DNA of 64,000 nt, taken from the NCBI GenBank assembly GCA_026389025.1, contig JAPLIQ010000022.1:1946-65945 (forward strand), read 5' to 3'. This stretch comes from Candidatus Babelota bacterium (GTDB taxonomy: Bacteria > Babelota > Babeliae > Babelales > Chromulinivoraceae). Shown piece by piece: positions 8,336 to 62,612 of this stretch. Below the pieces are notes generated by a model. The model did no database searches. It was not told where the DNA came from and saw only the letters and a list, made by a program, of their open reading frames with translations. Every line of letters starts with the position of its first letter. Position 1 is the stretch's first letter. The position numbers and the translations under genes are program-made.

Positions 8336-8798
8336 AAAAGCTCACGCAATATTATTTTTACTATGTTTTGCCCTACCTTTATTTCTTGATCGAATTACAA
8401 AATACTTGATCGTCAATGAAATCTGGGAAACACAAACTATCACATCTTTTTTCAATCTGTATTTCACCTACAATCGTGGGATTGCCTGGGGCATAGGCAG
8501 TGGGCTTGACCAGCAGTACGCTATGCTGACCACGTTTGTGGTTGCAGCTGTCTTGTTTTATTTTGCATGGTACATGCGGTTGGTTGCAGACAATCATAAA
8601 ATGCTTGGCTCTTGTCTGCTGATTTTATCAGGCGGCTTGTCAAATTTTTTTGATCGCCTATGGTTTGGCGGCGTTGTTGATTTTATACAGCTTCACTATG
8701 CAGGTTGGTATTTTCCGGTATTTAACATTGCGGATGTCAGCATTACCGTTGGCGCAATGTTTTTAAGTTATTTTTTTTTAAGTGATGATAAATCGTGA
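8316..8798 (+). CDS. lspA: lipoprotein signal peptidase II
   Basis: 160 aa, 4 TM segments. Motifs NRGIAWG and FNIADVSITVG. Confidence 0.85.
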   Translation: MMLKSVKKAHAILFLLCFALPLFLDRITKYLIVNEIWETQTITSFFNLYFTYNRGIAWGIGSGLDQQYAMLTTFVVAAVLFYFAWYMRLVADNHKMLGSCLLILSGGLSNFFDRLWFGGVVDFIQLHYAGWYFPVFNIADVSITVGAMFLSYFFLSDDKS

Positions 8799-9596: not shown

Positions 9597-10088
9597 ATGA
9601 AAAAACTATTTTTGTCCTTAATGCTTCTTGCAGGCGTTTATCAAACCACAAATTGTTCATCTGAATCGTCAATAAATTTACGAGCTGTTTCTGTTGGTGT
9701 AATTAGTGGCGCTGCCATTCAACTTGCTTTAGAATCCATGGATTCATCTCCTCAGGCTAGAGAGTCTGCAATGATGGCAGTTGGATTGGCAGGCGGAGCG
9801 ATAGTTGCATCATCGGAAGAGCTACCTTCTGGTTATGCATTAGCGCTTGCTGTTGCAACAGGGCTATACTTATATACCTCAACACAATGTAAAAAAGCAA
9901 AAGAAGCAGAGTTCCTTCAGGAGTCAAGAAATTACTATGTGTCTTCTTACAATATTGCTCGAAATGAATTGACAAGACTACAAGCTGAGAAAGAAGAATT
10001 GACACGTTCCTTGTTTGCTGCAAGGGCTGAGGCATCATCAGCTCAAGTATCAAGACCAACGAGATCTTTTAACGAAGAGGTAGACTAA
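9597..10088 (+). CDS. cassette A: small secreted protein with Gly/Ala-rich hydrophobic segments and a coiled-coil tail
   Basis: Start moved to the ATG at 9597 (AGGAAACAA ATG). Signal peptide MKKLFLSLMLLAGVYQTTNC is shared with cassettes B and C. The ORF-track extension upstream is leader sequence. Confidence 0.6.
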   Translation: MKKLFLSLMLLAGVYQTTNCSSESSINLRAVSVGVISGAAIQLALESMDSSPQARESAMMAVGLAGGAIVASSEELPSGYALALAVATGLYLYTSTQCKKAKEAEFLQESRNYYVSSYNIARNELTRLQAEKEELTRSLFAARAEASSAQVSRPTRSFNEEVD

Positions 10089-10113
10089 AAAAATTTAACT
10101 AAGAATTTAATTA

Positions 10114-10145
10114 GAAAAAGCGCCATGAAAGTGGCGCTATTTTAT
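10114..10145. terminator. bidirectional hairpin terminator, copy 1 of 3
   Basis: AAAAAGCGCCA-TGAAAG-TGGCGCT followed by a T-rich run. Identical hairpins lie at 10833 and 11700. Confidence 0.6.
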
Positions 10146-10181
10146 TTGTAAAATTTAAAGAAAATAAGTTTAATTTTTGAA

Positions 10182-10300
10182 TTATTCAACCACAATTCTT
10201 GGAATTGAATTATTGAGTCGAGCTAAAAATAAACGCATGTTTTTTTTGGCGCCGATTCGCCAGCCATAAGCACTTAATAGTTGTTGCTCGTAGGGCGCTA
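10182..10300 (-). pseudogene. remnant of the alr 3' end, copy 1
   Basis: Minus-strand translation ...APYEQQLLSAYGWRIGAKKNMRLFLARLNNSIPRIVVE* matches the C-terminus of the intact Alr at 11768. No upstream coding body. Confidence 0.75.
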
Positions 10301-10336
10301 TAGTAATTTCACCGTCGCACTCAATATTGTTTCACA

Positions 10337-10364
10337 TTGAAAACAAGTCGCAATTCGGTATAAT
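10337..10364 (+). promoter_or_regulatory. candidate sigma70-type promoter of cassette B
   Basis: TTGAAA, 16-nt spacer, TATAAT, about 48 nt upstream of the ATG at 10412. Duplicated at 11039-11066. Confidence 0.45.
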
Positions 10365-10411
10365 GTTATTTTGATCAACAAAACTAAACAATTTTTAACA
10401 ATAGAAAACAA

Positions 10412-10744
10412 ATGAAAAGACTGTTTTTGTCCTTAATGCTTTTTACAGTTGCCTATCAAAATACACAATGTTCTGATTCGGGAGACTTTCTTGAGCCTGA
10501 GACAGTTATATCTCTAGGAGGATTTGCTATGCATATGGCAATTGGTTGCGTACATGCCAAGGATGCGCTCAATGAATTTCAAAACAATGGTCCTTCTATG
10601 AAAGCAGCGCAAAACACAGGACTGGCTACCTTAAATGTCCTTATTGCAGCTAACTATGGTTCTTCAGCTGCTGTGTTTGGTTCATTGGGTTTAAATCTAA
10701 GTCTGGGCTTAGCAACTTCTGGGTTACTTATTATGAAGCGTTAA
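10412..10744 (+). CDS. cassette B: small secreted Gly/Ala/Ser-rich hydrophobic protein
   Basis: 110 aa. Signal peptide MKRLFLSLMLFTVAYQNTQC is homologous to cassette A up to about residue 22, then unrelated. Confidence 0.6.
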   Translation: MKRLFLSLMLFTVAYQNTQCSDSGDFLEPETVISLGGFAMHMAIGCVHAKDALNEFQNNGPSMKAAQNTGLATLNVLIAANYGSSAAVFGSLGLNLSLGLATSGLLIMKR

Positions 10745-10832
10745 GCGTAAAAGTCTGCTTACTTAGTACTAGGATCTGTCAATACTACAAATAATCTTGC
10801 TAGGCAAAATAATTTAGCTAAGAATGTAATTA

Positions 10833-10862
10833 GAAAAAGCGCCATGAAAGTGGCGCTTTTTC
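10833..10862. terminator. bidirectional hairpin terminator, copy 2 of 3
   Basis: Same AGCGCCA-TGAAAG-TGGCGCT hairpin followed by TTTTT. Confidence 0.6.
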
Positions 10863-10900
10863 AATATGCAATTTAAAGAAAAATAAGCTTAATTCTTGAA

Positions 10901-11018
10901 TTATTCAACCACAATTCTTGGAATTGAATTATTGAGTCGGGCTAGAAACAAACGTACGTTTTTTTTGGCGCCAGTTCGCCAGTGATAAGCACTTAATAGC
11001 TGTTGCTCGTAGGGCACT
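10901..11018 (-). pseudogene. remnant of the alr 3' end, copy 2
   Basis: ORF-track ORF 10901-11083 ends ...VPYEQQLLSAYHWRTGAKKNVRLFLARLNNSIPRIVVE*. Its N-terminal part reads through promoter DNA, so it is not a real gene. Confidence 0.75.
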
Positions 11019-11038
11019 GTAAGCTTAACTGTTTCACA

Positions 11039-11066
11039 TTGAAAAAAAGTCGCAAGTCGGTATAAT
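11039..11066 (+). promoter_or_regulatory. candidate sigma70-type promoter of cassette C
   Basis: TTGAAA, 16-nt spacer, TATAAT. The sequence is a paralog of 10337-10364. Confidence 0.45.
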
Positions 11067-11112
11067 GTTATTTTGATCAACAAAACAAATGATTTTTAAC
11101 AATAGGAAACAA

Positions 11113-11673
11113 ATGAAAAAGCTATTCTTGTCCTTAGCGCTTTTTGGTGGATTTGCGGTAGCAGGGCCAGAAGTAAAACTTACTCAAGAGCAGGAAGAGC
11201 AGTGGAACCAATTGTATGCAAAATTCATGCGGTTTGGCAAATGCAAAAGTCTAATATTTGCAGCTGCTGACCTTAATTCTCAAGAATTAAATCCTGATCA
11301 TAAGTTGCACGATATCATGGATCCTTCACAGAAAGCAGCATGTTCAAGATGGATACAAGAAGAGTCTAGAATTTTCAAGTGTTCGCAATTAGGAGAAGTT
11401 TTTCAGCTAGAAAAATACATCTTCTCTGATGAGTCTAGCTGTATAAAGCTATTGTCTACAATGACCGCATTTGCTATAGAAGAAGAAAAAAACGTAAAAA
11501 AAATGAAACAATTCTGTATGAAGTTCGGCATGTCTGAAGAAGAAGGTATTTCTTTATTGAATGCTCAAATAGAAAAAGAGATTAAGGCACAAATAGCTCG
11601 TGCTCAAGAATTATTTAAAGATCCTGAGCTTGTTAATGATCTTTTTGGTTTAAAAGATGATTCTGCTCAGTAG
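11113..11673 (+). CDS. cassette C: small secreted protein, Glu/Lys-rich, unrelated to A and B after the signal peptide
   Basis: Start at the ATG at 11113 (AGGAAACAA ATG). Signal peptide MKKLFLSLALFGGFAVAG. Confidence 0.6.
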   Translation: MKKLFLSLALFGGFAVAGPEVKLTQEQEEQWNQLYAKFMRFGKCKSLIFAAADLNSQELNPDHKLHDIMDPSQKAACSRWIQEESRIFKCSQLGEVFQLEKYIFSDESSCIKLLSTMTAFAIEEEKNVKKMKQFCMKFGMSEEEGISLLNAQIEKEIKAQIARAQELFKDPELVNDLFGLKDDSAQ

Positions 11674-30322: not shown

Positions 30323-33300
30323 GTGAAGAAAATAATAGTAAGCTTGGTGGCAATTTTTAGTTGTGGTTCAGTTCAGGCTATTAATATTAAATTGCTTAAG
30401 GGTACGCATACTATTGCGCCAGAGAATTATAGTCCTGTTATGGGAGTATCGTTTTTAGAGTGTGGGATTGCAGAGCAGTGGTATAAATTGAGTGCTCGAA
30501 GTCAAGCAGCGCAACTGAAAGAAGTTTTAGAAAAAAATCCTAAGGCTCTGATTGACAATCCTGAGCTAACAAAATTTACTCAAAATATGCCAAAAAATAG
30601 CGCAACAGAAGATTTGATTATGTTGATGTTTCACATAGCTGGTGGATCATTTGGTGTGACTAATGCAGATGATAATCCTGTGAAATATTTAGAGCCGATG
30701 CATATTGGAAAAATTTTACAAGTCGTGCAAAAGTGGGAACAAGCATCTGCGAATTCAGAAAAAATGGCAGCATTAAAGGTTCAAGCAATATCGAAAAAAT
30801 CTGAGTACGATATAAAAATAACAAGTTTGCAGAAGGAAATGTCTCAGCTAAATACTAAAATTTTAGCAGCAAAAAAAACAGGTAATGATTCTTTGGTTGC
30901 CAGCCTACAAAATGAGTTAGGTTTAAAAAATGCAGATCGTGTAAAATATCAAGCTTTATCAAAAAAATTAGTAAGTCATGAGTCAATAGACTTTGTCGAA
31001 CAATCTTTGCAACAAGAATTAAATGATTTGTGTATGAGTTTTAAATTTGAACGTAAAAACAAAAAGTTGTTTACGGAAGGTGACTGGAATTCATTTGCAA
31101 AGCCGCTTATTGGATCAATTAAAGAAAGCACTGATAATCAGCGATTATACGCCGAAAATACGACGCAAGGTATTTTGCTTGGGTTTATGCTTAAAAAATC
31201 AAATACGCGTAATGATTTGCAGAGTTATTTCAGGGGACTTTTAAAGGATGAAGCCTTTGTTTTGCCTTTGACAAAGGAATATAGCTCTGCAGAAATAAAT
31301 AAAATTCTTGCTGAAAAAACAGATACTTCTAATTTTGAGAAATTGGCAGATTTATTGTCTGCATATACGAGTAAAAAATTGTATGAATCAGTCCTTCCGA
31401 GCATAACAGGCTATCAATTTGTTAACTATAAAGGGATAGAGTATTCAGATTGTATGGACACTGTGATTCGTGTGCTTGTAAATATTGTAACTTATCAACC
31501 AAATGAAAATAAGCTTGGGGTTACTCCGAGCGGTTTGCGGTTAAATAAAGAAGCTCAAGAATTTTATAAGTCAGAAGATGGACTTTGTGAAAATCCTGCA
31601 GAGGTTGGCAATATCAAGGTACATGAAGCCTGGGCTAACGTTGCTTCAAATATTCCTGGTTGCGTGTATAAACAAATAGGAACTGGGCCAGAAAATGTAA
31701 TGTCTACTCCGCCAGAAGGATTTGATGGATTTATGCCAGTCGACTATACCTTTACCCAGAAAGCTCCAGGAAAAATTGAAATAGATGGTACATCTTATGA
31801 TTCTTATCCTGTAACGGTTGGTGTAAAAACATATACATTGGTACAAAAAAAAGTTGGCAATGCGACTTATTTGCTTGTGCCAAAAAATTCAGAACTTTTT
31901 TGCTGTGAAATGAGAACTAACTTATTAAATATTGTTATAGCGTTAAGTAAGATCCTTGATTTAGGTCTTTACTCAAAATTTGATGAAATATATGAGCCTG
32001 ATTTTGCCTTAAATAAATTTAAGCAGCTTTGTGAAAAGTTGAATTGGGAGCCTTTAGTTGAGATAACAAAACTTGATCAGACAGGGGAAATGATTATTCC
32101 TATTAATGTTGGGCAAAGTAAATTTTCTCTTAATTTGGACTATAATCGTCATGCAAAAATTACTGATATAATTGAAAAAACATACAATGTTAATCTTGAA
32201 GTATCACCAGCAACAAGTCAGTCAAGAGTTGCTGCAATAGTTGGAGTTGGCCTTAAAAAAATAGCAGTTCTTCCTGATGACTTACAAGCAGCTTGTTTGT
32301 ATAAAAATGTAGCTGCTTTAAGTATTAATCAGCGCATTGAGGTTGTTGACGAGATGCTTAAAGATAAAAATAGTTTGAAAGATGTGGAAAAAAATTATGT
32401 TAAATGTTTAATCATGAGTTTTAGTTTGGTTGATCATTTAAGCTATTTACCAATAATAGTTGACTATTTTGGGGAAGACTTGAAAAAAGTAGGGTTGGGT
32501 GATTTTATTGTATCAGCTTTAAATCTACATGATGCTACACATAAAAGTGATCTTCTTCTGCTATCATTGTCAAACTTGATTAAATATGAATTAATAACAG
32601 GGGATCAAATATTGCCACTGCTTCCAGTGATTGAAAAAGGACTGAGTAGTTCAAGTAGCTCTGTTCAATCTGCCGCTATTTCAGCAGTTACTAGTTTAAT
32701 AGGAGCTAAGTTAGTAACAGTTGATCAAGTATTGCCATTGCTTGCAAAAGGACTGAGTGGTACAGATTTGTCTACTCAATCGACTGCTATGTCAGAAGTT
32801 ACTAGTTTAATAGAAGCTAAATTAGTAACAGTTGATCAAGTATTGCCATTGCTTGAAAATGGAATGAGTAGTGCACGTTTGAATGTTCAAAATGAAGCTA
32901 TCTCAGGAATTAATGATTTAATAAAATCTAATCTAGTAGCAGTTGATCAAGTATTGCCATTGCTTAAAATCCTTGAAAAAGGACTAGATAGTACAGATTC
33001 GGATATTGAATATAAAGCTATCTCAGGAATTAATGATTTAATAAAGTCTAACTTAGTAACAGTTGATCAAGTATTGCCATTGCTTGCAAAAGGACTGAGT
33101 AGTCTTAATTTTAACGTTGAAAATAGAGCTATCTCAGGAATTAATGATTTAATAAAATCTAACCTAGTAACGGTTGATCAAGCATTGCCATTGCTTGACA
33201 TACTTGAAAAAGGACTAGGTAGAACGCCTACTATTGAGCAGAAAGCTATTTCAGGAATTAATGGTTTAATCAAATTTAAATTAGTAACTGCGGATCAAGT

Positions 33301-33499
33301 ATTTTCATTGGTTAAAGCAAGATGGAGTCATGTAAATAAAAATTCTCAAGAGCTCTTTCTGAAAACAGTTGAAAGTTTAGTTGAAGCAGAAATGATAACT
33401 AAATTAGAAATTCAGAGTTTAATTGTTGGGGCAAAAGATAACAAAATTGGTAAAAAATTAGCAGAATTAAAGGCTAAAGCAACCAGTTTCAATTCATAA
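30323..33499 (+). CDS. large secreted protein, paralog 1: orphan ~640-aa N-domain, coiled coil, seven HEAT-like repeats
   Basis: 1058 aa. AAGGAG SD plus GTG start. Signal peptide MKKIIVSLVAIFSCGSVQA. Roughly two-thirds to three-quarters identical by eye to 33766-36804 over the N-domain. Confidence 0.75.
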   Translation: MKKIIVSLVAIFSCGSVQAINIKLLKGTHTIAPENYSPVMGVSFLECGIAEQWYKLSARSQAAQLKEVLEKNPKALIDNPELTKFTQNMPKNSATEDLIMLMFHIAGGSFGVTNADDNPVKYLEPMHIGKILQVVQKWEQASANSEKMAALKVQAISKKSEYDIKITSLQKEMSQLNTKILAAKKTGNDSLVASLQNELGLKNADRVKYQALSKKLVSHESIDFVEQSLQQELNDLCMSFKFERKNKKLFTEGDWNSFAKPLIGSIKESTDNQRLYAENTTQGILLGFMLKKSNTRNDLQSYFRGLLKDEAFVLPLTKEYSSAEINKILAEKTDTSNFEKLADLLSAYTSKKLYESVLPSITGYQFVNYKGIEYSDCMDTVIRVLVNIVTYQPNENKLGVTPSGLRLNKEAQEFYKSEDGLCENPAEVGNIKVHEAWANVASNIPGCVYKQIGTGPENVMSTPPEGFDGFMPVDYTFTQKAPGKIEIDGTSYDSYPVTVGVKTYTLVQKKVGNATYLLVPKNSELFCCEMRTNLLNIVIALSKILDLGLYSKFDEIYEPDFALNKFKQLCEKLNWEPLVEITKLDQTGEMIIPINVGQSKFSLNLDYNRHAKITDIIEKTYNVNLEVSPATSQSRVAAIVGVGLKKIAVLPDDLQAACLYKNVAALSINQRIEVVDEMLKDKNSLKDVEKNYVKCLIMSFSLVDHLSYLPIIVDYFGEDLKKVGLGDFIVSALNLHDATHKSDLLLLSLSNLIKYELITGDQILPLLPVIEKGLSSSSSSVQSAAISAVTSLIGAKLVTVDQVLPLLAKGLSGTDLSTQSTAMSEVTSLIEAKLVTVDQVLPLLENGMSSARLNVQNEAISGINDLIKSNLVAVDQVLPLLKILEKGLDSTDSDIEYKAISGINDLIKSNLVTVDQVLPLLAKGLSSLNFNVENRAISGINDLIKSNLVTVDQALPLLDILEKGLGRTPTIEQKAISGINGLIKFKLVTADQVFSLVKARWSHVNKNSQELFLKTVESLVEAEMITKLEIQSLIVGAKDNKIGKKLAELKAKATSFNS
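32591..33400 (+). repeat. in-frame tandem DNA repeats of 111-120 bp encoding 37-40-aa HEAT/ARM-like units
   Basis: Unit starts (TTAGTAACAGTTGATCAAGTATTGCCATTGCTT or variants) at about 32591, 32711, 32822, 32933, 33053, 33164 and 33281. Peptide unit: LVTVDQVLPLL..KGL......AISGINDLIKSN. Confidence 0.85.
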
Positions 33500-33765: not shown

Positions 33766-36700
33766 GTGAAGAAAATAATAGTAAGTTTGGTGGCAATTTT
33801 TAGTTATGTTTCAGTTCAAGCAACTGTTAGTCCTATATGGCTTAAGGGTACTGTTGTTAAGGGGCTAGAGAATTGTAGTCCTTTTATGGGGCTATCGTTT
33901 TTAGAGTGGGGGATTGCAGAGCAATGGTATAAGCTGTGTCCAAAAGAGCTACAAAGGCAGATGGAAGAAGTTTTTAAAGAAAATCCTGAGGCTTTGCGTG
34001 ATAATCCTAAGCTAGCAAAATTTGTTAAAGAAATTGGTAAAAATAGCGCGACAGAAGATTTGGTTATGTCGATGTTTCATATAGCTGGCGGATCATTTGG
34101 TTTGACTAATGCAGATGATAATCCTGTGAAATATTTAGAGCCAAAACATATTGGAAAAATTTTACGCATAGTGCATAAGTGGACTGAGGCATCTTTAGAT
34201 CCAGAAAAAATCAAGACTTTAAAAAATGAAGCTAAAGATAAGAAAGCTATACATAAAGCAGCTATAGCGGAAATAGGAAAAGAAACGTCACGGTTAGCTG
34301 GAGTAATTTCAAGAGCGCAAAAATTAAATGAAGAGGTAGCGGACAGGAAAAATGAGTTAGAGATCAAAAACGCAAAGCTTAAAGAACATCAAACTTTATC
34401 AGGAAAAGTAGTAAGTCATGAGTCAACAGACTTTGTAGAAAAATCTTTGCAACAAGAATTAAATGATCTATGTATGAGTTTCGAATTTAAAGGCAAAAAC
34501 AAAAAGTTGTTTCCGGAAGCTCAATGGAAATCATTTGTAACGTCGCTTGTTGGATCAATTCAAGAAAGCACTGGTGCTCAGCGATCATACGCCGAAAATA
34601 CGCCGCAGGGTATTTTGTTGGGGTTTATGCTTAAAAAATCCAATAATAAAGATGATTTACAAAGTTATTTCAGGGGGCTTTTAAACAATGAAACCTTTGT
34701 TTTATCGCCTCAAGAGGAATATAGTTCTACAGAAATGTCTCAGACTCTTGCTAGAAAAACAGATGCCTCTGATTTTGAGAAATTTTCAGATTTATTATCT
34801 GCATTCACGATTAAAGCACTGTATGAAGCAGGTCTTCCAAGGATAACAGGCCATCAAAGTGTTAACTATAAAGGGATACAATTTGTAGATTGTATGGACA
34901 CTGCAATTCGTATGCTTGCAAATATTGTAACTTATCAACCAAATAAAAATAAGCTTGGGGTTACTCCGAGCGGTTTGCGGTTAAATAAAGAAGCTCAAGA
35001 ATTTTATAATTCAGAAAAGGGACTTTGTGCAGATCCTGCAGAAGTTGGTAATAGTAAGGTGCATCAGGCCTGGACTAACGTTGTTTCAAATATTTCTGGC
35101 TGCGTGTATAAACAAATAGGAAAAGGACCAGGCAGTGTAATCTCTGCTCCGCCAGAAGGATTTGATGGATTTATGCCAGTCGATTATATTTCTACCCAGA
35201 CAGCTTCAGGAGAAATTGAAATAGATGGTAAATCTTATAAATCTTATGCTTTAAAAATTGGTGGGACAGTATATACATTAGCACAAAAAAAAGTTGGCAA
35301 TGCCACTTATTTGCTTGTACCAAAAAATTCAGAACTTTTTTGTTGTGAAATAAGAACTAACTTATTAAATACTGTTATAGCGTTGAATAAGATTTTTGAT
35401 TTAGATCTTTACTCAAAATTTGATGATATATATGAGCCTAATTTTGCCTTAAAGAAATTTACACAGCTTTGTGAAAAGTTCAATTGGGAGCCTCAAGTTG
35501 ATATAACGAAGCTTGATCCGACAAAGGATATGATTATTCCTATTAAGGTTGGGCAAAATGAATTTTCTATTCATTTAGGCTATAATACGCATGGAGCAGT
35601 TACTAATAAAAATAAACTTGCCACGAGTGTTAATCTTGAGGTACCTGATGGAACAAGTCAGCCAGTAATTGCTGCAATAGTTAGTGCAGGACTAAAAAAA
35701 ATAAGGGATTTGCCAAAAAATTTACAACCAGGATATTTATATAAAAACGTAGATATTTCAACTGATGAAAAAAGATATCAAACTATTCTTAGTATCTTTC
35801 AATCTGCACCAGCAGAGCAAACCTATCTTAAAAAATTAATACAGAGTTTTAGTTTTGTTGAAAATGAAGAATATTTAGGCAAAATAATAACGAAAGTTTT
35901 AAATCCTCTTGAAGATGAAAAAACAATAACGGCAAGTCATAATACATTAATTGAATTTGTTTTATCTGCCGCTCTGATTCATTCCCTTCAGTATAAATCA
36001 AGCACTCTGGTATTTGATTATTTATCATCGTTTATTAAATATAACATCTTAACCATAAAAGAAGCGCTATCATTGCTTGAAAAAGGACTTGATAGTTCAT
36101 TGTGGAAAGTTGTAGATAGCAGTTGCCGAGAAATTATTGCGTTAATAAAAGAAAAATTAGTTGCAGTAGGTCAAATAGCTCCCTTAATGGAAAAAGCAGC
36201 CGGTAATAAAAATGTTAACGTTCAAAAGATGTTTTTAAAGGAAATTTTATCGCTTATAAATGACAAATTACTTACAGCAGATCAAGTGTGGCCAATTGTT
36301 GAAGAAGGATTAAAGAGCAAAGATCTTTATAATAGGAGTCATTCTGTAAACATAATTACAGCATTGGTTAAAGAAGGAATTGCAACTAAATCAAAAATTG
36401 ATCAATTATTGCCTTTTGTTGAACAAGGGTTGAGATATTCAAATACGTTTTTGCAAAGAGCGTCTGTGAGAATGATTGAATCATTGGCTGAAGCAGGAAT
36501 GATAACTCAATCAAAAATTGAGAGTTTAATTAATCTGCCAATAACTGATGATGTTAAGGAAAAATTAGAAATATTAAAGGTGAAGGCACCAGTTTCAATT
36601 TTTAAAAAGGTGAAGTTGTCACCAAAACAAACAGAAGAAATAATTAAAAGAATTAATCCAAAGCCTTATGAAAAAAAGCAGGCAATGCAAGAACAGCATC

Positions 36701-36804
36701 AAAGAGAGCTGGAAGCGCAAGAACGGTCAGAGAAAGAAGCAAGGGCGCAAAAAGAAGCAAGTGCGCAAAGGAATGATTCTGCTTCGCATGAAGTAATTCG
36801 TTAG
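33766..36804 (+). CDS. large secreted protein, paralog 2: same N-domain, four degenerate HEAT-like repeats, Lys/Glu/Gln-rich tail
   Basis: 1012 aa. Signal peptide MKKIIVSLVAIFSYVSVQA. C-terminal tail ...EEIIKRINPKPYEKKQAMQEQHQRELEAQERSEKEARAQKE. Confidence 0.75.
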   Translation: MKKIIVSLVAIFSYVSVQATVSPIWLKGTVVKGLENCSPFMGLSFLEWGIAEQWYKLCPKELQRQMEEVFKENPEALRDNPKLAKFVKEIGKNSATEDLVMSMFHIAGGSFGLTNADDNPVKYLEPKHIGKILRIVHKWTEASLDPEKIKTLKNEAKDKKAIHKAAIAEIGKETSRLAGVISRAQKLNEEVADRKNELEIKNAKLKEHQTLSGKVVSHESTDFVEKSLQQELNDLCMSFEFKGKNKKLFPEAQWKSFVTSLVGSIQESTGAQRSYAENTPQGILLGFMLKKSNNKDDLQSYFRGLLNNETFVLSPQEEYSSTEMSQTLARKTDASDFEKFSDLLSAFTIKALYEAGLPRITGHQSVNYKGIQFVDCMDTAIRMLANIVTYQPNKNKLGVTPSGLRLNKEAQEFYNSEKGLCADPAEVGNSKVHQAWTNVVSNISGCVYKQIGKGPGSVISAPPEGFDGFMPVDYISTQTASGEIEIDGKSYKSYALKIGGTVYTLAQKKVGNATYLLVPKNSELFCCEIRTNLLNTVIALNKIFDLDLYSKFDDIYEPNFALKKFTQLCEKFNWEPQVDITKLDPTKDMIIPIKVGQNEFSIHLGYNTHGAVTNKNKLATSVNLEVPDGTSQPVIAAIVSAGLKKIRDLPKNLQPGYLYKNVDISTDEKRYQTILSIFQSAPAEQTYLKKLIQSFSFVENEEYLGKIITKVLNPLEDEKTITASHNTLIEFVLSAALIHSLQYKSSTLVFDYLSSFIKYNILTIKEALSLLEKGLDSSLWKVVDSSCREIIALIKEKLVAVGQIAPLMEKAAGNKNVNVQKMFLKEILSLINDKLLTADQVWPIVEEGLKSKDLYNRSHSVNIITALVKEGIATKSKIDQLLPFVEQGLRYSNTFLQRASVRMIESLAEAGMITQSKIESLINLPITDDVKEKLEILKVKAPVSIFKKVKLSPKQTEEIIKRINPKPYEKKQAMQEQHQRELEAQERSEKEARAQKEASAQRNDSASHEVIR

Positions 36805-42785: not shown

Positions 42786-44174
42786 TTAAAGAGAAAGTTG
42801 TTTTTTTGTCCAAACAATAACGTATGCACAGATATAGCCACCTAAAGAGAGCGCTAAAGGAATCACATCTTTCATGATCAAACTCATTGGGAAGTATTGC
42901 ACCCCGATAAGTCCTATAATTCCAAACAGTACTGAAGTCCACGCTGCTTGTTTGTACAGTGACGTTGCAAAATATGCAATCACAGTCGGCACAAAAAGAC
43001 AGATGACAGAAATGCGGTAACTATTTTCTAAGATATATAAAATATCTCCACTCATGTAAAAAGACATTATGAGTGCACTGATTCCAATTAAAAATGAAAT
43101 AAATCTGGTTGTTGTTAATTTGTGATTTTCAAGCGGCAAAAATGCGCTAAAATCCTGTACAACGTTTGAACTGATTGCGCACAAAAGAGAGCTTGCTGTT
43201 GAAGTAATTGCCGCCATGATGCCACACATTGCAAGCATAAAAACTGTTTTGCTTGATATGAAAAAAAGAGTGGCAACCAGTGGGCTTCCACCGTCTGGAA
43301 TAATAAGATGTTTTATTTTTGCAAGTATGCCATAAAAGATTGGAATGATGGAAAAAGCTATTAAAAATAAGCCAGCAAGCAAAGCAGAAATTGTTGCTGT
43401 TGCACGTGTCTTAGCCGCAAATAATTTTTGAGCCAAATCTTGTTCAATTAAAGCAAAAAGAGTTGGAATAAAAAGTATAGGCAAAAAGCTCCATAAATCA
43501 GGTTTAACGTCAAAGAAGTAGTCCTGAATCAGAGCTAGCCTTGGCAGGTTTGTCATAGTTGAAGCTGCAGAACGCATGGAGAAAAATGAAAATGAAAAAA
43601 TACCTGAAATGAAAAGCACTTGTACAATGTCAACAATGACAATTGAATGAAGACCGCCAAGCATGCTGTAAAAAATGAGAAACATCCAGCAACTGATTAA
43701 GACGTAAGGATCTGTGATTTTAAGACCGAGGAACAGTGATTTTGATGCAACAATTTGCGCGAGTAAAATACCCCATAAGCTCACAATAGAAAGCGTTGAA
43801 GCAATAAGTTTTAAATAATATGAACCATAAATAGTTTCAAAAATTTCGGCTGTTGTGTTCACGTTTAAAGCTCGCATACGCGATGCCAGGCCAAGGCCTA
43901 AAATAATAAAACCAAGACTCATGCCTATGGAATACAGCAGCCCCCAAAAGCCAACATGATATGCTCGGTACGCAGTTCCCAGGATCATACCGCTGCCAAG
44001 TTGGCTTGCGATAAGCGCAAAGGTTAATTTGAAAACACCAAGGTTTCTATCAGCTAAAAAATAATTTTGAAGCGTTCTGACGCCACGCGCAGACCAAATG
44101 CCTAAAGCAAGATAAAAAAGAGCTAGGCCAGTTAAGATAGAAAAAAATAAACTTTGATCAATAATCATATTCAT
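42786..44174 (-). CDS. sodium:solute symporter family transporter
   Basis: 462 aa, about 12-13 TM segments. SSF-like N-terminal region (FLADRNLGVF...ASQLGSGMILG). Confidence 0.6.
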   Translation of the reverse strand: MNMIIDQSLFFSILTGLALFYLALGIWSARGVRTLQNYFLADRNLGVFKLTFALIASQLGSGMILGTAYRAYHVGFWGLLYSIGMSLGFIILGLGLASRMRALNVNTTAEIFETIYGSYYLKLIASTLSIVSLWGILLAQIVASKSLFLGLKITDPYVLISCWMFLIFYSMLGGLHSIVIVDIVQVLFISGIFSFSFFSMRSAASTMTNLPRLALIQDYFFDVKPDLWSFLPILFIPTLFALIEQDLAQKLFAAKTRATATISALLAGLFLIAFSIIPIFYGILAKIKHLIIPDGGSPLVATLFFISSKTVFMLAMCGIMAAITSTASSLLCAISSNVVQDFSAFLPLENHKLTTTRFISFLIGISALIMSFYMSGDILYILENSYRISVICLFVPTVIAYFATSLYKQAAWTSVLFGIIGLIGVQYFPMSLIMKDVIPLALSLGGYICAYVIVWTKKQLSL

Positions 44175-58685: not shown

Positions 58686-59135
58686 TTAGCAGCAACAGCA
58701 GGATGAATCAGAAGATTTTTCAATCTTATTCATAATTTCAATAAATTCAGAATAAGTCATCTGTTTTACTATGCATACGTTTTGATTTTGCTCGGCATAG
58801 GCATTACCAAGAGTTATTTTTATGTGAATCATGCAACGATTATCATTTGCTTGTGTTGTTTGTGTAATGACAACGGTATCTTTATTTTGAGAAACGTTTG
58901 ATTGAGACTTTATTAATGATGCAAGTCTATAATCGCATTGCAAGGCTCGATCGCATAGATACTCTTTAAGCTTAACTTTTTCTCTGTCTAAAAATCTTGT
59001 ACTTATATCTTCAAAAAAGGGCGCTTCTCTGTCCAAAAGCCTTACGCTTGAGTCTTGCAGGTAGTTTTTTTCCATTGTTTGAATGTGTGTGGTCATCATG
59101 CTAAAGCTTAATGCTGCGAGTAACAAATGTTTCAT
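58686..59135 (-). CDS. hypothetical secreted protein ending in CCCC
   Basis: Start at the ATG at 59135 (MKHLLLAALSFSMM...). C-terminus ...KSSDSSCCCC*. Confidence 0.5.
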   Translation of the reverse strand: MKHLLLAALSFSMMTTHIQTMEKNYLQDSSVRLLDREAPFFEDISTRFLDREKVKLKEYLCDRALQCDYRLASLIKSQSNVSQNKDTVVITQTTQANDNRCMIHIKITLGNAYAEQNQNVCIVKQMTYSEFIEIMNKIEKSSDSSCCCC

Positions 59136-59189
59136 GTTTATCTCTTTTTTGGATTTAGTCATAAAGGCAACGCTGCAATTTTTTAATGT

Positions 59190-59591
59190 TTAGCGACAGA
59201 ATAAACCAGCATTTGATACCTGTCTGCCTGTGATATCACAGAACTCCTTCATAGTAAAAACTGTCGTAAAAGTTATTATTTCTTGAACATAATCAACATC
59301 ATTCTCATAGAGGTACTTAACAGTTTGTACTTGTACTGCAAGGCGATGAGAATAAATATTAAGAACAGCTTTTACACTGTCCGTTGCTGTACTTTGTGAT
59401 GTTAAAATATTGTTGGGTTCAACATCGTTAAATTCTTGGGTTGAAAAGCAGTCATTATAAAATTTATCTAAAATAACTTGTTTTAGCTTCTGTTGATCTT
59501 GAATAGAAAGGTTGTAAGGTATTTCATTGCTTGCTTGAATGCGTGCAGCTACAAAAGAAAAACTGAGTAAAAGTAAAAATGCATATCTCAT
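59190..59591 (-). CDS. hypothetical secreted protein, distant paralog of 58686-59135
   Basis: Start at the ATG at 59591 (MRYAFLLLLSFSFVAARIQA). The track extension would overlap the cysK 3' end. C-terminus ...NAGLFCR*. Confidence 0.5.
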   Translation of the reverse strand: MRYAFLLLLSFSFVAARIQASNEIPYNLSIQDQQKLKQVILDKFYNDCFSTQEFNDVEPNNILTSQSTATDSVKAVLNIYSHRLAVQVQTVKYLYENDVDYVQEIITFTTVFTMKEFCDITGRQVSNAGLFCR

Positions 59592-59604
59592 AATTGTTTC
59601 TTTA

Positions 59605-60519
59605 TTATTTAGCGTAAAAGCCTTTTGATAAGTAAGCTCGACCTGAATCACCAAAGATGATGACAGCAACATCAGTTGGCTTCAGCCTTGGTGCGTAGGT
59701 GTAAGCTGCATAAGCAACGGCGCCACTGCTTGGCCCAACTAAAAATCCATACTCATGAGCTAATTTTTTCATCATATCCATGCCTTGCTCATCAGTCACT
59801 TCAATAAATTCATCAATAACTGAATTATCAAGAACCAAAGATTCAGAGTCAACGCCCATGCCTTCAAGCTTGTAAGGTTTTGGATTACCTTTAGTTGATC
59901 TGTAAGAGTTTGCAGCATCAACACCAATGACTTGAATGTTTGGATTCATTTCTTTTAAATATTTTCCAGCGCCACTCACTGTTCCGCCAGTTCCTGCAGC
60001 AGCAATTAAATGCGTAACTTTGCCTTCTGTTTGTTTCCAAATTTCAGGACCAACTCCATAGTAATGTGCCGTTGCATTGAGTGGATTACAGTATTGATTT
60101 GGCATGTGAGAGTTTGGCGTTTCTTTGCTCAGTTTTACCGCTTGTGAATGGTAGCTATTTGGGTCTTCTAAGGATGGTCCAGAAGGAAATGTTAAAACTG
60201 TTGCACCATAGGCCCTGATAGTATCCATTTTTTCTTTGCTGTGCTTATCTGTTGAGCAAATGATAACAGGATAGCCCTTGATTGCTCCAATGAGCGCCAA
60301 AGCGATTCCATGATTACCTGATGAAGCATCTATGATGGTCATTCCTGGCTTTAAAAGCCCTTGCTGCTCTGCCCACTCTACCATGTACAAAGCAGATCTG
60401 TCTTTGATGCTGCCGCCTGGATTTAAATATTCTAATTTTGCATAAATTGAACCCGGAGAGTTTTCAAATATTTTAACCAGGAGCGTATCGCCGATAGATT
60501 GAAGCAGAGAGTTTTTCAT
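59605..60519 (-). CDS. cysK: PLP-dependent cysteine synthase / CBS-family enzyme
   Basis: GGSIKDR (PLP lysine), SSGNHG and GTGGTVSG. Confidence 0.8.
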   Translation of the reverse strand: MKNSLLQSIGDTLLVKIFENSPGSIYAKLEYLNPGGSIKDRSALYMVEWAEQQGLLKPGMTIIDASSGNHGIALALIGAIKGYPVIICSTDKHSKEKMDTIRAYGATVLTFPSGPSLEDPNSYHSQAVKLSKETPNSHMPNQYCNPLNATAHYYGVGPEIWKQTEGKVTHLIAAAGTGGTVSGAGKYLKEMNPNIQVIGVDAANSYRSTKGNPKPYKLEGMGVDSESLVLDNSVIDEFIEVTDEQGMDMMKKLAHEYGFLVGPSSGAVAYAAYTYAPRLKPTDVAVIIFGDSGRAYLSKGFYAK

Positions 60520-60544: not shown

Positions 60545-61492
60545 TTAATAAATCAATATCATAATTGAAACGAGAAGCCCATAAATAGCAAACGAATCAA
60601 TCATTGCTAGTGCGAGCATGGCAAGCTTTGAAAGAGCTGGATACAGCTCAAGATGCAATCCAATCTGAGTGACTGCAGCAGCCCCAGTTCTTCCAGAGTT
60701 TACACCTGGAGATAGAGTGCTTAGCCCCATACAGAGCGCTGAAGCAAAAAATTGCCAGCCAATGAGCGGTGAGAGAGAAGCTATGTCTTGAGTTAAAATC
60801 ATGAACGAAATAATAAGTGAAAATATGACCGGTGTTTCAATGACTGCTTCGCTAATGAATGTAAAAGTTACAATTTTACTATACGATTTTTTATTGATGC
60901 CAATAGCGCTCAATGCTGCAAATGCAAAGACACAAAGTCCAATAGAGGGACCAACGCATCCCAGTCCAATACTCAGACCACCAGAAAAAAGCTGCATAGC
61001 TTGATTAAAAGTGGTTGTGGTTGTTAAGTTTGCCTTAATCATAAAGCCGACAATTAAACCAAATATGTTTGGCGTCATGATCAGTGTTTGTGTAATGAGC
61101 ATGAGGTTTAAAATTTTAGTTTGCATGAATGGTTGCCTTGCTAAACTTTTGCATGCAGCAATTGCAGGAAAAGATGCAGCTATGCCGGCGCACAGTCCTG
61201 AAATTCCTACAGCTATCGCTATTCCTGCTACGCCAAAATTAGCAAAATACGAATCAAGCATCACAGCTGGATTACTGAGTAAAAGAAGTGACATTAAAAA
61301 TCCCATTAACGCAGCAGTTTCAACAATTGCAGAGCCAATGATACAAAATTTGACAATATTGTTAGCTGAGGTTGGTTGCAGCTGCATTGCGTGCAGACCA
61401 TGCTTACCAATCAGTCCTTGACCAATGCTGGTGCCAATTGATGAAAGTATCAATGGAATGATAGAGAATAAAATATAAAAAATGTCTGTCAT
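60545..61492 (-). CDS. atpE: F-type ATP synthase Fo c subunit, four hairpins fused (8 predicted TM)
   Basis: Four ~79-aa c-like units: (1) IGQGLIGKHG..MQLQP..AIVETAALMGF; (2) ..SLARQPF..TLIMTPNIFGL; (3) ..AVIETPVIFSL; (4) ..LAMIDSFAIYGLLVS. Lies directly downstream of atpB. Confidence 0.75.
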   Translation of the reverse strand: MTDIFYILFSIIPLILSSIGTSIGQGLIGKHGLHAMQLQPTSANNIVKFCIIGSAIVETAALMGFLMSLLLLSNPAVMLDSYFANFGVAGIAIAVGISGLCAGIAASFPAIAACKSLARQPFMQTKILNLMLITQTLIMTPNIFGLIVGFMIKANLTTTTTFNQAMQLFSGGLSIGLGCVGPSIGLCVFAFAALSAIGINKKSYSKIVTFTFISEAVIETPVIFSLIISFMILTQDIASLSPLIGWQFFASALCMGLSTLSPGVNSGRTGAAAVTQIGLHLELYPALSKLAMLALAMIDSFAIYGLLVSIMILIY

Positions 61493-61500
61493 ATATTTCT

Positions 61501-62259
61501 TTACGGAATTATAGCGATATTTGTAGCATCTTGCTCTTCATGAACAACTTCCATGGAAAGATAGGTTGTCGTCAGCATCGTAAATACAAACGCTTGAATC
61601 AATCCTTCAAAAACTCCAAAAATCAAAAGCATAGTAATGTTTGCTCCTGAGACAAGACCGATTGTTTGCAGCAAAACTGAACCAGAAAGCATTCCTGCAT
61701 ACAGTGAACTGATGACAAATCCTCCAAATATATTTCCATACAATCGAAACGATAAAGAAATAAGTGAAGACAAAAGTCCAACGACATGAAGTGGAAACAT
61801 GAGAAAAAATGGATCAAAGTAATGTAAAATGTATTTTTTAATTCCTTTTGCTTTGACTGCGTTGAAGTGAACATACAGCAGAGCAATAAGACTAAGGGCA
61901 AACGTTGTGTTTAAATCTTTAGTTGGCTCTTCGCACCAAGGAATTATTTGTATTGTGTTGCACAGTAAAATAAAGGTGAACAGTGAGCCAATGAGCGAAA
62001 GATGCTCAATCGGACATGAGTGAATTGATTGAACGAGTAAGTCTTGAAATGCTTTTACGTATTGTAAAACCGCATACCTGACAAGACTATTTTCATTTTT
62101 TAAGCATCGGAAAATATAAAAACCTGAAATCATTAAAAGGCCAAGAATAATCCAGGTGTCGATTAAAATTTCTGAGTTTAAAGTCCAAAAATCTCCATGA
62201 AGACCAAACTCTGAAAATGGTTTCCATGTGAGGTGAGTTAAAGCATTCTGATTATGCAT
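61501..62259 (-). CDS. atpB: F-type ATP synthase Fo a subunit
   Basis: LSFRLYGNIFGG (essential Arg) and QAFVFTMLTTTYL. Confidence 0.9.
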   Translation of the reverse strand: MHNQNALTHLTWKPFSEFGLHGDFWTLNSEILIDTWIILGLLMISGFYIFRCLKNENSLVRYAVLQYVKAFQDLLVQSIHSCPIEHLSLIGSLFTFILLCNTIQIIPWCEEPTKDLNTTFALSLIALLYVHFNAVKAKGIKKYILHYFDPFFLMFPLHVVGLLSSLISLSFRLYGNIFGGFVISSLYAGMLSGSVLLQTIGLVSGANITMLLIFGVFEGLIQAFVFTMLTTTYLSMEVVHEEQDATNIAIIP

Positions 62260-62286: not shown

Positions 62287-62565
62287 CTACATTTTGTAAG
62301 CTAAAATTCCTACGCTGCATAGGTAAGAGGATACAAACAATATAGTCAGAAGTATAGAGTTGCTTGCAACAAATGTTGAGATCGTATAAAAAAACAAAAT
62401 TAAGAGCGAAAAGCGCAGCAGAGTAAAGATAAAATCATATGCAGGCTTGCTGTGTGCGAGTGAATATTTTTTTCCAACGTAGAAAAGAGAGCCGTACATA
62501 ATTCCGCTTAAAATCGTTACGATACTTATAAAAAACATATTTGAAATCATAAATTTTTGACCCAT
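62287..62565 (-). CDS. AtpI/AtpZ-like small membrane protein (assigned by position)
   Basis: About 92 aa with 3-4 hydrophobic segments, upstream of atpB. The start at 62565 has a GAGGA SD; the track start at 62598 has none. Confidence 0.45.
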   Translation of the reverse strand: MGQKFMISNMFFISIVTILSGIMYGSLFYVGKKYSLAHSKPAYDFIFTLLRFSLLILFFYTISTFVASNSILLTILFVSSYLCSVGILAYKM

Positions 62566-62612
62566 CTCTTCGTCCTCGTGCTCGACACGGGGATACATGT
62601 GTTTATTTTTAT

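Follow-up and report, generated by a model that had tools for sequence, protein, structure and literature searches.

A natural four-hairpin subunit c, with one predicted silent ion site, in the F-type Fo of Dependentiae

The number of ion sites in the c-ring sets the ion/ATP ratio of an ATP synthase, a central gearing parameter of bioenergetics. For F-type enzymes the prevailing view has been that nothing but the number of identical single-hairpin subunits makes it differ, with the hybrid ring of Acetobacterium woodii as the lone exception. A 64,000-nucleotide (nt) stretch of DNA from a Candidatus Babelota bacterium (contig JAPLIQ010000022.1; referred to here as the window) raises the question of what kind of rotor could be built from a subunit c of quite another size. 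The open reading frame (ORF) at 60545..61492 on the minus strand, directly after the gene for subunit a, encodes 315 amino acids (aa) in place of the about 70-90 aa of a single-hairpin c polypeptide, and its product, which we call c4, is a genuine and conserved four-hairpin (eight-helix) F-type Fo subunit c. Proteins of this kind stand in public annotation as 'ATP synthase F0 subunit C' or as 'hypothetical protein', with no further remark.

The c4 gene and its product

The c4 ORF begins with an ATG 8 nt past the stop codon of the gene for the 252-aa subunit a, ends with a stop codon at 60545..60547 and has no internal stops. The ATP-synt_C profile (PF00137) matches the whole protein in four stretches, with a joint score of 102.8 bits (E 1.2e-29). 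Cuts at residues 79, 158 and 238 give quarters which, searched in isolation, score 41.2, 35.1, 32.3 and 30.8 bits for hairpins 1 to 4, all above the gathering score of 24 bits. The AlphaFold2 model, made with 74 homologues, has eight long helices, which is to say four hairpins (mean predicted local distance difference test score, pLDDT, 92.4; predicted template modelling score, pTM, 0.87). The single F-type c of four hairpins, each of about 79 aa, that the initial annotation had read from this DNA is thus borne out, as are the eight helices that it expected. Lysine and arginine residues, ten of which lie in the four hairpin loops and one in the three linkers and the N-terminus taken together, are placed in a way that fits the normal topology of subunit c, in which the loops face the cytoplasm and F1. 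No tandem repeat is found in the c4 gene at the level of DNA, so the gene is not a collapsed or duplicated assembly.

Each hairpin can be assigned its own segment of the minus strand and its own ion site. Hairpin 1 (aa 1-79, 61256..61492) has Gln25 in helix 1, a loop with Q39-P40, and Glu58 (codon 61319..61321) followed by Thr59. Hairpin 2 (aa 80-158, 61019..61255) has an ARQP loop and, at the position of the carboxylate, Met139 (codon 61076..61078), which makes it the predicted silent site. Hairpin 3 (aa 159-238, 60779..61018) has the loop GINKK and an active-type Glu219 (codon 60836..60838) in the motif IETP, and hairpin 4 (aa 239-315, 60548..60778) has Asp299 (codon 60596..60598) in MIDSFAIYG. 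The motifs that had been quoted for the four hairpins (GQG, MQLQP and AIVETAA; ARQP and TLIMTPNIF; AVIETPVIF; AMIDSFAIYG) are all where they were said to be. The carboxylate that characterizes c subunits is found in hairpins 1, 3 and 4 and is replaced by Met in hairpin 2, an assignment upheld both by alignment to c subunits of solved structure and by the columns of the family alignment that is discussed below.

The partner of c4 is unmistakably of the F type. Subunit a (61501..62259, minus strand) matches PF00119 (ATP-synt_A) with E 1e-36, and TIGR01131 with 103.4 bits against a cut-off of 102.6; it carries LSFRLYGNIFGG, and has the essential stator Arg in LSFRLYGN. In its alignment to subunit a of Bacillus PS3 (6n2d_a, E 5.5e-19) the Arg of LRLFGN and the helix IQAF(I/V)FTMLT are kept. 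The best NCBIfam match of c4 itself is to the F0F1 c subunit (108.7 bits, in four stretches), against no more than 60 bits for any V-type K model; none of the NCBIfam equivalog cut-offs is reached. The F-type assignment of the initial annotation is accordingly retained on both counts, that is, for subunit a and for the best family matches. Identity as a V/A-type proteolipid was considered and rejected, since the neighbouring gene is PF00119 and not V_ATPase_I, and the F-type c profile scores higher. Membership in the N-ATPases, whose gene order is atpDCQRBEFAG, was likewise rejected: the cluster consists only of a small ORF, a and c4, and TIGR03322 and TIGR03306 fall far below their cut-offs.

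The fusion is spread through the phylum Dependentiae. A word-indexed search returned 181 relatives of c4, nearly all of 313-318 aa, of which the named ones are Candidatus Babeliales, Dependentiae or TM6 and the closest named one (Babeliales/Dependentiae) is 80% identical. A HMMER search of 1.84 billion cluster representatives (50% clustering) gave 381 matches, 132 of them with E<=1e-30, almost all of 300-330 aa and with identity down to 27%; the deep named members (27-32% identity) are still Babeliales. All told there are more than 240 full-length homologues (300-335 aa, most of them 313-323), at 27-100% identity, and all the named ones are Dependentiae, Babeliales or TM6. Ninety-one independent loci from genomes and metagenomes, 846 kilobases (kb) in total, each have one four-domain c-like ORF adjoining subunit a, and the adjacency of a and c4 holds in every locus whose upstream DNA is present. 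With the AtpI-like ORF that is taken up in the last section, a and c4 form a conserved three-gene module throughout the phylum. Two contigs with the same a-c4 synteny carry other labels: L001 (DATIJN010000098.1) is called 'Candidatus Saccharimonadales' and its c4 is 71% identical to that of the window, and L003 (CAYNSS010000001.1) is called 'uncultured Pseudomonadota', with a c4 that is 60% identical; both are probably mislabelled metagenome-assembled genomes of Dependentiae. One metagenomic locus (L069, 366-1328) has a c4 that an internal stop divides into pieces of 271 and 49 aa, through a sequencing error or as a pseudogene. In the literature we met with no account of a four-hairpin F-type c occurring in nature; subscription journals were not covered, which makes 'undescribed' a provisional term.

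The silent hairpin and the relatives of c4

What became of the four ion sites within the family can be read from an alignment of 246 c4 sequences. Column 58 (hairpin 1) is Glu in 240 of them and column 219 (hairpin 3) is Glu in 237; column 299 (hairpin 4) is Asp in 192 and Glu in 47. Column 139 (hairpin 2) is the variable one, with Met in 113, Gln in 96 and Glu in 25. Taken as four-site patterns, this gives EMED 112 times, EQED 65, EQEE 21 and EEEE 20, with others rarer. Aligned to c subunits of solved structure, Glu58 and Gln25 fall on Glu65 and Gln32 of Ilyobacter tartaricus c, and Met139 falls on the silent Gln in hairpin 2 of A. woodii c1, as well as on the Glu of the 25 deep family members. 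Judged by this alignment, most of the phylum has a silenced hairpin 2, with Met as the silent residue in the clade of the window's genome.

The silent hairpin is also, by the same measure, not decaying, and purifying selection appears to be strong there too. Its outer helix (residues 121-154; major-residue frequency 0.81) is, together with the outer helix of hairpin 3, the most conserved part of c4, and Q135, T136, M139, T140, P141, N142 and F144 are near-invariant within the Met139 clade. The QP and RQP loops of hairpins 1 and 2 (Q39-P40 and Q120-P121) are invariant in the family, with Q39 in 240/246; of other columns, Y304 is found in 227/246, and Q25 and N200 each in 213/246. A finer detail of the silent helix is that Gln135 is found in all 118 members of the Met139 clade and Asn142 in 116; position 142 is hydrophobic (V/I/L) in the deeper Gln and Glu clades, so that it co-varies with the loss of a polar residue at 139.

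The initial annotation had also offered a history, in which hairpin 1 would pair with 3, and 2 with 4, through two successive duplications. That history finds no support in the profile-profile scores, which rank H3-H4 (68) and H1-H4 (64.5) first, then H2-H3 (52), and put H1-H3 (42) and H2-H4 (37) fourth and fifth of the six, ahead only of H1-H2 (32); nor do the mean identities between hairpins favour duplication of a pair, being all 21-25% with H3-H4 at the top. From the low identity of the hairpins to one another it follows that the fusion is ancient. They are about as distant from a single-hairpin c, the A. woodii c2, at 26-33% identity. In a neighbour-joining tree of the 246 sequences, rooted at its midpoint, a group of 30 that mostly has Glu139 is sister to a Gln139 group of 216, and the Met139 clade of 118 is nested within the latter. 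All the single-hairpin c subunits that we know of have the carboxylate. Since one basal group keeps E-E-E-E while the other has Gln, with the Met clade nested in it, the fusion predates the silencing, and the simplest reading of the tree is that fusion came first, that Glu then gave way to Gln in hairpin 2, and that Gln would have given way to Met in the window's clade.

The nearest thing to c4 among proteins of solved structure is A. woodii c1 (4BEM chain J), which is its best match in the Protein Data Bank by sequence (E 4.6e-12) and by Foldseek (E 9.3e-05). It too is F-type, with fused hairpins of which the first keeps its Glu and the second has lost it. In contrast to c4, with its four hairpins and three sites, it has two hairpins and one site; its silent residue is Gln and that of the window's c4 clade is Met; and it enters, as a single copy, a ring of nine normal c subunits from the same operon, whereas c4 loci have no normal c nearby. 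The composition of that ring (nine single-hairpin c and one c1) establishes that an F-type ring tolerates silent hairpins (PMC9171764). The halves of A. woodii c1 are 76-77% identical to c2, which makes it a recent, lineage-specific duplication, and the c4 hairpins are only 23-33% identical to these sequences. A common origin of the two was rejected on these identities, and the resemblance is convergent.

V/A-type proteolipids have long been known to multiply their hairpins and to lose carboxylates, which lowers the ion/ATP ratio and is the classical gearing of a pump (PMC9171764, PMC2359735). E. hirae NtpK, the eukaryotic c, c' and c'' and the archaeal c subunits of 2, 3 or 13 hairpins follow the same principle of multiplication as c4, and the c4 fold matches two-hairpin units with template-modelling scores (TM-scores, normalised to target length) of 0.6-0.86. 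Their enzymes, however, have a V-type a/I subunit and a V1/A1 head, and the partner of c4 is an F-type a (PF00119). Among solved structures there is none with a layout of four hairpins and three sites and none that covers more than two of the c4 hairpins, the longest alignment being of about 175 columns. Linked F-type hairpins are also known from the laboratory. The E. coli c2-c4 fusions of Jones and Fillingame and the Bacillus PS3 c10 of Mitome et al. form working rings, and in the single-chain c10 of PS3, which is active, weakening individual sites lowers activity without abolishing it (PMC8809890). These are made of identical repeats with artificial linkers, and c4 is a natural and ancient fusion of four diverged, non-equivalent hairpins; that fusions up to a single-chain c10 work nevertheless makes it mechanically plausible. 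With canonical AtpE (E. coli, Bacillus PS3, I. tartaricus) the c4 hairpins share the fold, the glycine-rich inner helix and the position of the carboxylate, the RQP loop is matched in hairpin 2, and the gene order (atpI-like, atpB, atpE) is common to both. Unlike canonical AtpE, c4 has four hairpins, one silent site and three chemically different active sites, and the genes for b and F1 are not adjacent to it.

It had further been stated that bacterial F-type c is otherwise a single hairpin. To judge by sequence databases, that generalization has to be given up. Among the HMMER matches that fall outside the Dependentiae family, P0265 led to a second large family (also P0226 and P0293-P0409), of about 320, 405 and 485 aa, that is, of 4, 5 and 6 hairpins, encoded in atp operons; names attached to it include Desulfarculus, Desulfobacterales and Thermodesulfobacteriota. 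Its carboxylate patterns are mostly EQQQQ (58), EQQQQQ (25) and EQQQE (20), so that usually only the first carboxylate is kept. In both loci that were examined subunit a comes immediately before the gene and a normal c of 82-86 aa comes after it; next in line are b, twice, in L092 (gene 10001-11218), and b, delta, alpha, gamma, beta and epsilon in L093 (gene 7654-8616). Such arrangements would imply hybrid rings, which resemble the A. woodii rotor taken to an extreme. These Desulfobacterota-type paralogues have in common with c4 that they are natural multi-hairpin F-type c subunits encoded after a; yet they are a separate family, mostly with one site and accompanied by a normal c, whereas c4 fills the atpE slot by itself and retains the majority of its sites. 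We found no paper describing them. Other long proteolipids also came to light: a c of seven hairpins, each of them with Glu, from Candidatus Gracilibacteria (P0261, 524 aa), and very long multi-hairpin proteolipids from Asgard archaea (P0154, 1139 aa; Promethearchaeota/Hodarchaeota) and from metagenomes (P0175, 968 aa). As the second family suggests, multi-hairpin F-type rotors may be much commoner in uncultured bacteria than the literature implies.

A proposed rotor, its ion and its rivals

The choice of coupling ion can be approached through the residues around each site. In I. tartaricus the Na+ ligands are Q32 and E65 of one hairpin and, from the neighbouring hairpin, S66 and the carbonyl of V63, with the polar T67 and with Y70; by E. 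hirae numbering the neighbour that contributes is the preceding hairpin, and the published rule is that a site with one or more ligands absent binds only H+ (PMC2359735). Laid out in this way, site 1 is nearly of the Na+ type: it has Q25 and E58 of its own and, from the preceding hairpin 4, S300 and Y304, with F301 at the position of T67. As placed by the alignment, Ser300 and Tyr304 of hairpin 4 would complete the hairpin-1 site of the next protomer. Site 3 (L186 and E219; T140, P141 and F144 from the preceding hairpin 2) and site 4 (S266 and D299; T220, P221 and F224 from the preceding hairpin 3) are both without the Gln and the Tyr. Ser or Thr follows the carboxylate position in all four outer helices, and a polar equivalent of T67 is absent from all sites, the residues there being Ala60, Pro141, Pro221 and Phe301. 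With the Na+ ligand set missing from two of the three active sites, H+ is the most likely coupling ion. The hint of Na+ ligands in the initial annotation therefore holds for site 1 (Q25/E58/S300/Y304, less the Thr67 equivalent) and fails for sites 3 and 4. On this assignment of ligands the three active sites of c4 are chemically non-equivalent, which is unusual in itself.

The account that we favour, and on balance consider probable, is that c4 makes up the complete rotor ring, of 4n hairpins and 3n sites, of an ATP-driven, probably H+, pump. As the sole subunit c, n copies of c4 would close the ring, which would turn against the Arg of subunit a as in any Fo, the silent hairpin passing that Arg with no uptake or release of an ion. 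On hairpins 1 and 2, the QP and RQP loops, which are invariant, would provide the contact for the central stalk of F1. Since known F-type rings range from 8 to 17 hairpins (PMC7594442), n could be 2, 3 or 4. With n = 2 there would be 8 hairpins, 6 sites and 2 ions per ATP, compared with 2.7 for an all-active ring; with n = 3, 12 hairpins, 9 sites and 3 ions per ATP (all-active, 4); and with n = 4, 16 hairpins, 12 sites and 4 ions per ATP (all-active, 5.3). With one site in four silent, the highest ion-motive force attainable per ATP would be greater by a third, following the logic of V-type gearing. The gearing proposed in the initial annotation (hairpins in multiples of four, three sites in each four, a lowered ion/ATP ratio) is sound on the proviso that c4 is the only c, and no single-hairpin c was found within ±10 kb of c4 in any of the 91 loci.

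Whether lower gearing would be of use depends on the direction in which the enzyme runs. Dependentiae have no electron transport chain, they have ATP/ADP translocases, and their ATP synthase is presumed to run in reverse to keep up the ion gradient (PMC4776705, PMC6561590). The suggestion of an energy parasite is well founded in this respect, as the nearest named homologues are Babeliales/Dependentiae and the import of ATP is in the literature (PMC4776705, PMC6561590). The lack of a respiratory chain and the import of ATP from the host argue that the enzyme would be mainly an ATP-driven pump.

A more particular version, which we entertain only tentatively, is (c4)3: 12 hairpins and nine sites in exact three-fold symmetry, with each 120-degree step of F1 corresponding to one protomer and three ions. 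If true, there would exist in nature an F-type motor whose ion/ATP ratio is an integer and matches the symmetry, where mismatch is otherwise the usual case. The conserved silent hairpin 2 would then pass the stator Arg once per step and three distinct sites would follow one another in a fixed order.

The weakest links of the favoured account are that c4 should be the sole c subunit and that F1 should be present and coupled, and a number of findings weigh against it. No F1, b or delta genes were found in the 64-kb window or in any flank (846 kb), and their presence in Dependentiae rests on general statements in two papers. A single-hairpin atpE may lie unlinked elsewhere in the genome; the other multi-hairpin c subunits, of the second family and of A. 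woodii, are always found beside a normal c. ATP synthesis is still possible in an enzyme whose c subunit is of the V type (PMC9171764), and 'pump only' consequently does not follow from a silent site alone. As for the ion, site 1 has four of the five residues of the Na+ signature, and the window encodes, at 42786..44174 on the minus strand beside an ORF of 457 aa, a member of the sodium:solute symporter family (SSF, PF00474), which bears on the use of a Na+ gradient.

These last two points are the substance of a Na+-coupled variant, in which the same c4 ring would move Na+ instead of H+. Site 1 matches I. tartaricus residue for residue in Q25, E58, S300 and Y304 (Q32, E65, S66 and Y70), and the Ser or Thr that follows the carboxylate position on the four outer helices is in keeping with it, as is the PF00474 symporter. 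Against this, Leu186 and Ser266 replace Gln, and Phe replaces Tyr, at sites 3 and 4, the T67 equivalent is nowhere to be found, and the published ligand rule predicts H+ (PMC2359735). The literature, for its part, assumes H+ for Dependentiae, which also carry an H+-pyrophosphatase (PMC4776705). We regard Na+ coupling as unlikely, though it deserves to be kept in mind.

Another rotor altogether would be a hybrid, with c4 as a minor, specialised component of a ring made mostly of single-hairpin c encoded elsewhere in the genome. The only characterised precedent, that of A. woodii (nine c2/3 and one c1), is of this kind, every other natural F-type multi-hairpin c that was examined (L092, L093) is encoded together with a c of 82-86 aa, and the search for a second c covered only the flanks of the 91 loci. 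In those loci, however, c4 is the only c-like gene next to a, it occupies the canonical atpE slot after atpB, it has three or four active sites where the paralogues have one, and the word-indexed search gave almost only proteins of about 315 aa from this phylum; the Pfam tables for L005, L008 and L010 likewise have no single-hairpin c and no alpha or beta. This makes a hybrid ring rather improbable, and the favoured reading of c4 as the sole rotor subunit is kept.

The absence of alpha and beta raises the further question whether the module works with F1 at all. The corresponding Walker motifs were found neither in the six frames of the window nor in the ±10 kb flanks of the 91 loci, and of two further window ORFs neither is alpha or beta: the one of 457 aa has no Pfam family and the one of 462 aa is an SSF transporter. 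The AtpI-like ORF, a and c4 might conceivably make up a stand-alone membrane device, an ion conductor for instance, whether passive or regulated, since neither in the 91 loci nor in the window are b, delta or F1 genes linked to the module, and the phylum relatives IOLA and AB1_lowgc are reported to have only three recognisable components of ATP synthase. Split Fo and F1 operons are, however, common in bacteria, the QP and RQP loops, which in F-type enzymes are the contacts for gamma and epsilon, are invariant in c4, and the stator Arg of a is kept. ATP synthase is moreover reported in all the TM6 genomes that were studied (PMC4776705, PMC6561590), and a module independent of F1 seems to us very improbable. 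As to four tandem atpE genes merged by an error of sequencing or assembly, or a fusion in decay, the internal stop of L069 is all that speaks for it, and it can be dismissed in view of the uninterrupted frame of about 315 aa that many assemblies share (more than 240 sequences, and all but one of the 91 loci), the lack of a DNA repeat, strong purifying selection that includes the silent hairpin, and the confident AlphaFold2 model.

Neighbouring genes and wider meaning

The third member of the module, directly upstream of a, is a three-transmembrane ORF (62287..62598, minus strand; 103 aa as listed) that is a candidate assembly factor of the AtpI type by virtue of position and weak homology. It is probably annotated too long, as its homologues begin at the equivalent of Met17 (window position 62550). 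A hydrophobic ORF of 81-115 aa (in one case 63 aa) has this place in 56 loci. Three of 27 members of this small family match PF03899 (ATP-synt_I), with a best E of 1.5e-4, and two of the 27 match AtpR weakly (E 0.11); the ORF of the window itself has no match in Pfam and none among the sequences of solved structures. A single Arg, R62 of the middle helix, is invariant in the family, a feature reminiscent of AtpI and AtpR proteins. On the other side, 25 nt downstream of c4, lies a gene for a pyridoxal phosphate (PLP)-dependent cysteine synthase/cystathionine beta-synthase-like protein (59605..60519, minus strand; PF00291, E 2.8e-72; cysK/CBS-like in NCBIfam). It follows c4 in L005-L007, and unrelated genes are found there instead in the deep clades L008 and L010; being syntenic in the close clade only, it is probably not a functional part of the ATPase.

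Several other ORFs of the window call for mention. Two small ones on the minus strand, of 158 aa (58686-59162) and 160 aa (59190-59672), have N-terminal, signal-like hydrophobic segments and no Pfam match, and the first ends in SSCCCC; both could be secreted or lipidated lineage-specific proteins. Two large ones on the plus strand, of 1058 aa (30323-33499; weak matches to the eukaryote-type domains Tepsin VHS/ENTH-like and ParcG, with no stretch significant alone) and of 1012 aa (33766-36804; no domain match), are candidates for the host-interaction effectors that are typical of Dependentiae.

As a class, multi-hairpin proteolipids with silenced sites are already known. What appears to be new in c4 is its status as the apparent sole rotor subunit of an F-type enzyme, a ring restricted to multiples of four, and a preserved history of the loss of a site. 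A natural c4 throughout a phylum, with three or four of its four sites, would fix the ring at multiples of four hairpins, and the family offers a stepwise series of site silencing, from E-E-E-E through E-Q-E-E/D to E-M-E-D, within one F-type lineage. Silencing here would be tied to a way of life that requires a pump, in parallel with the transition that has been proposed from F/A-type to V-type enzymes, and this would make that scenario testable in bacteria. For the Dependentiae, as intracellular parasites of protists, the c4 rotor is a distinctive structural target, and possibly one for drugs or diagnostics.

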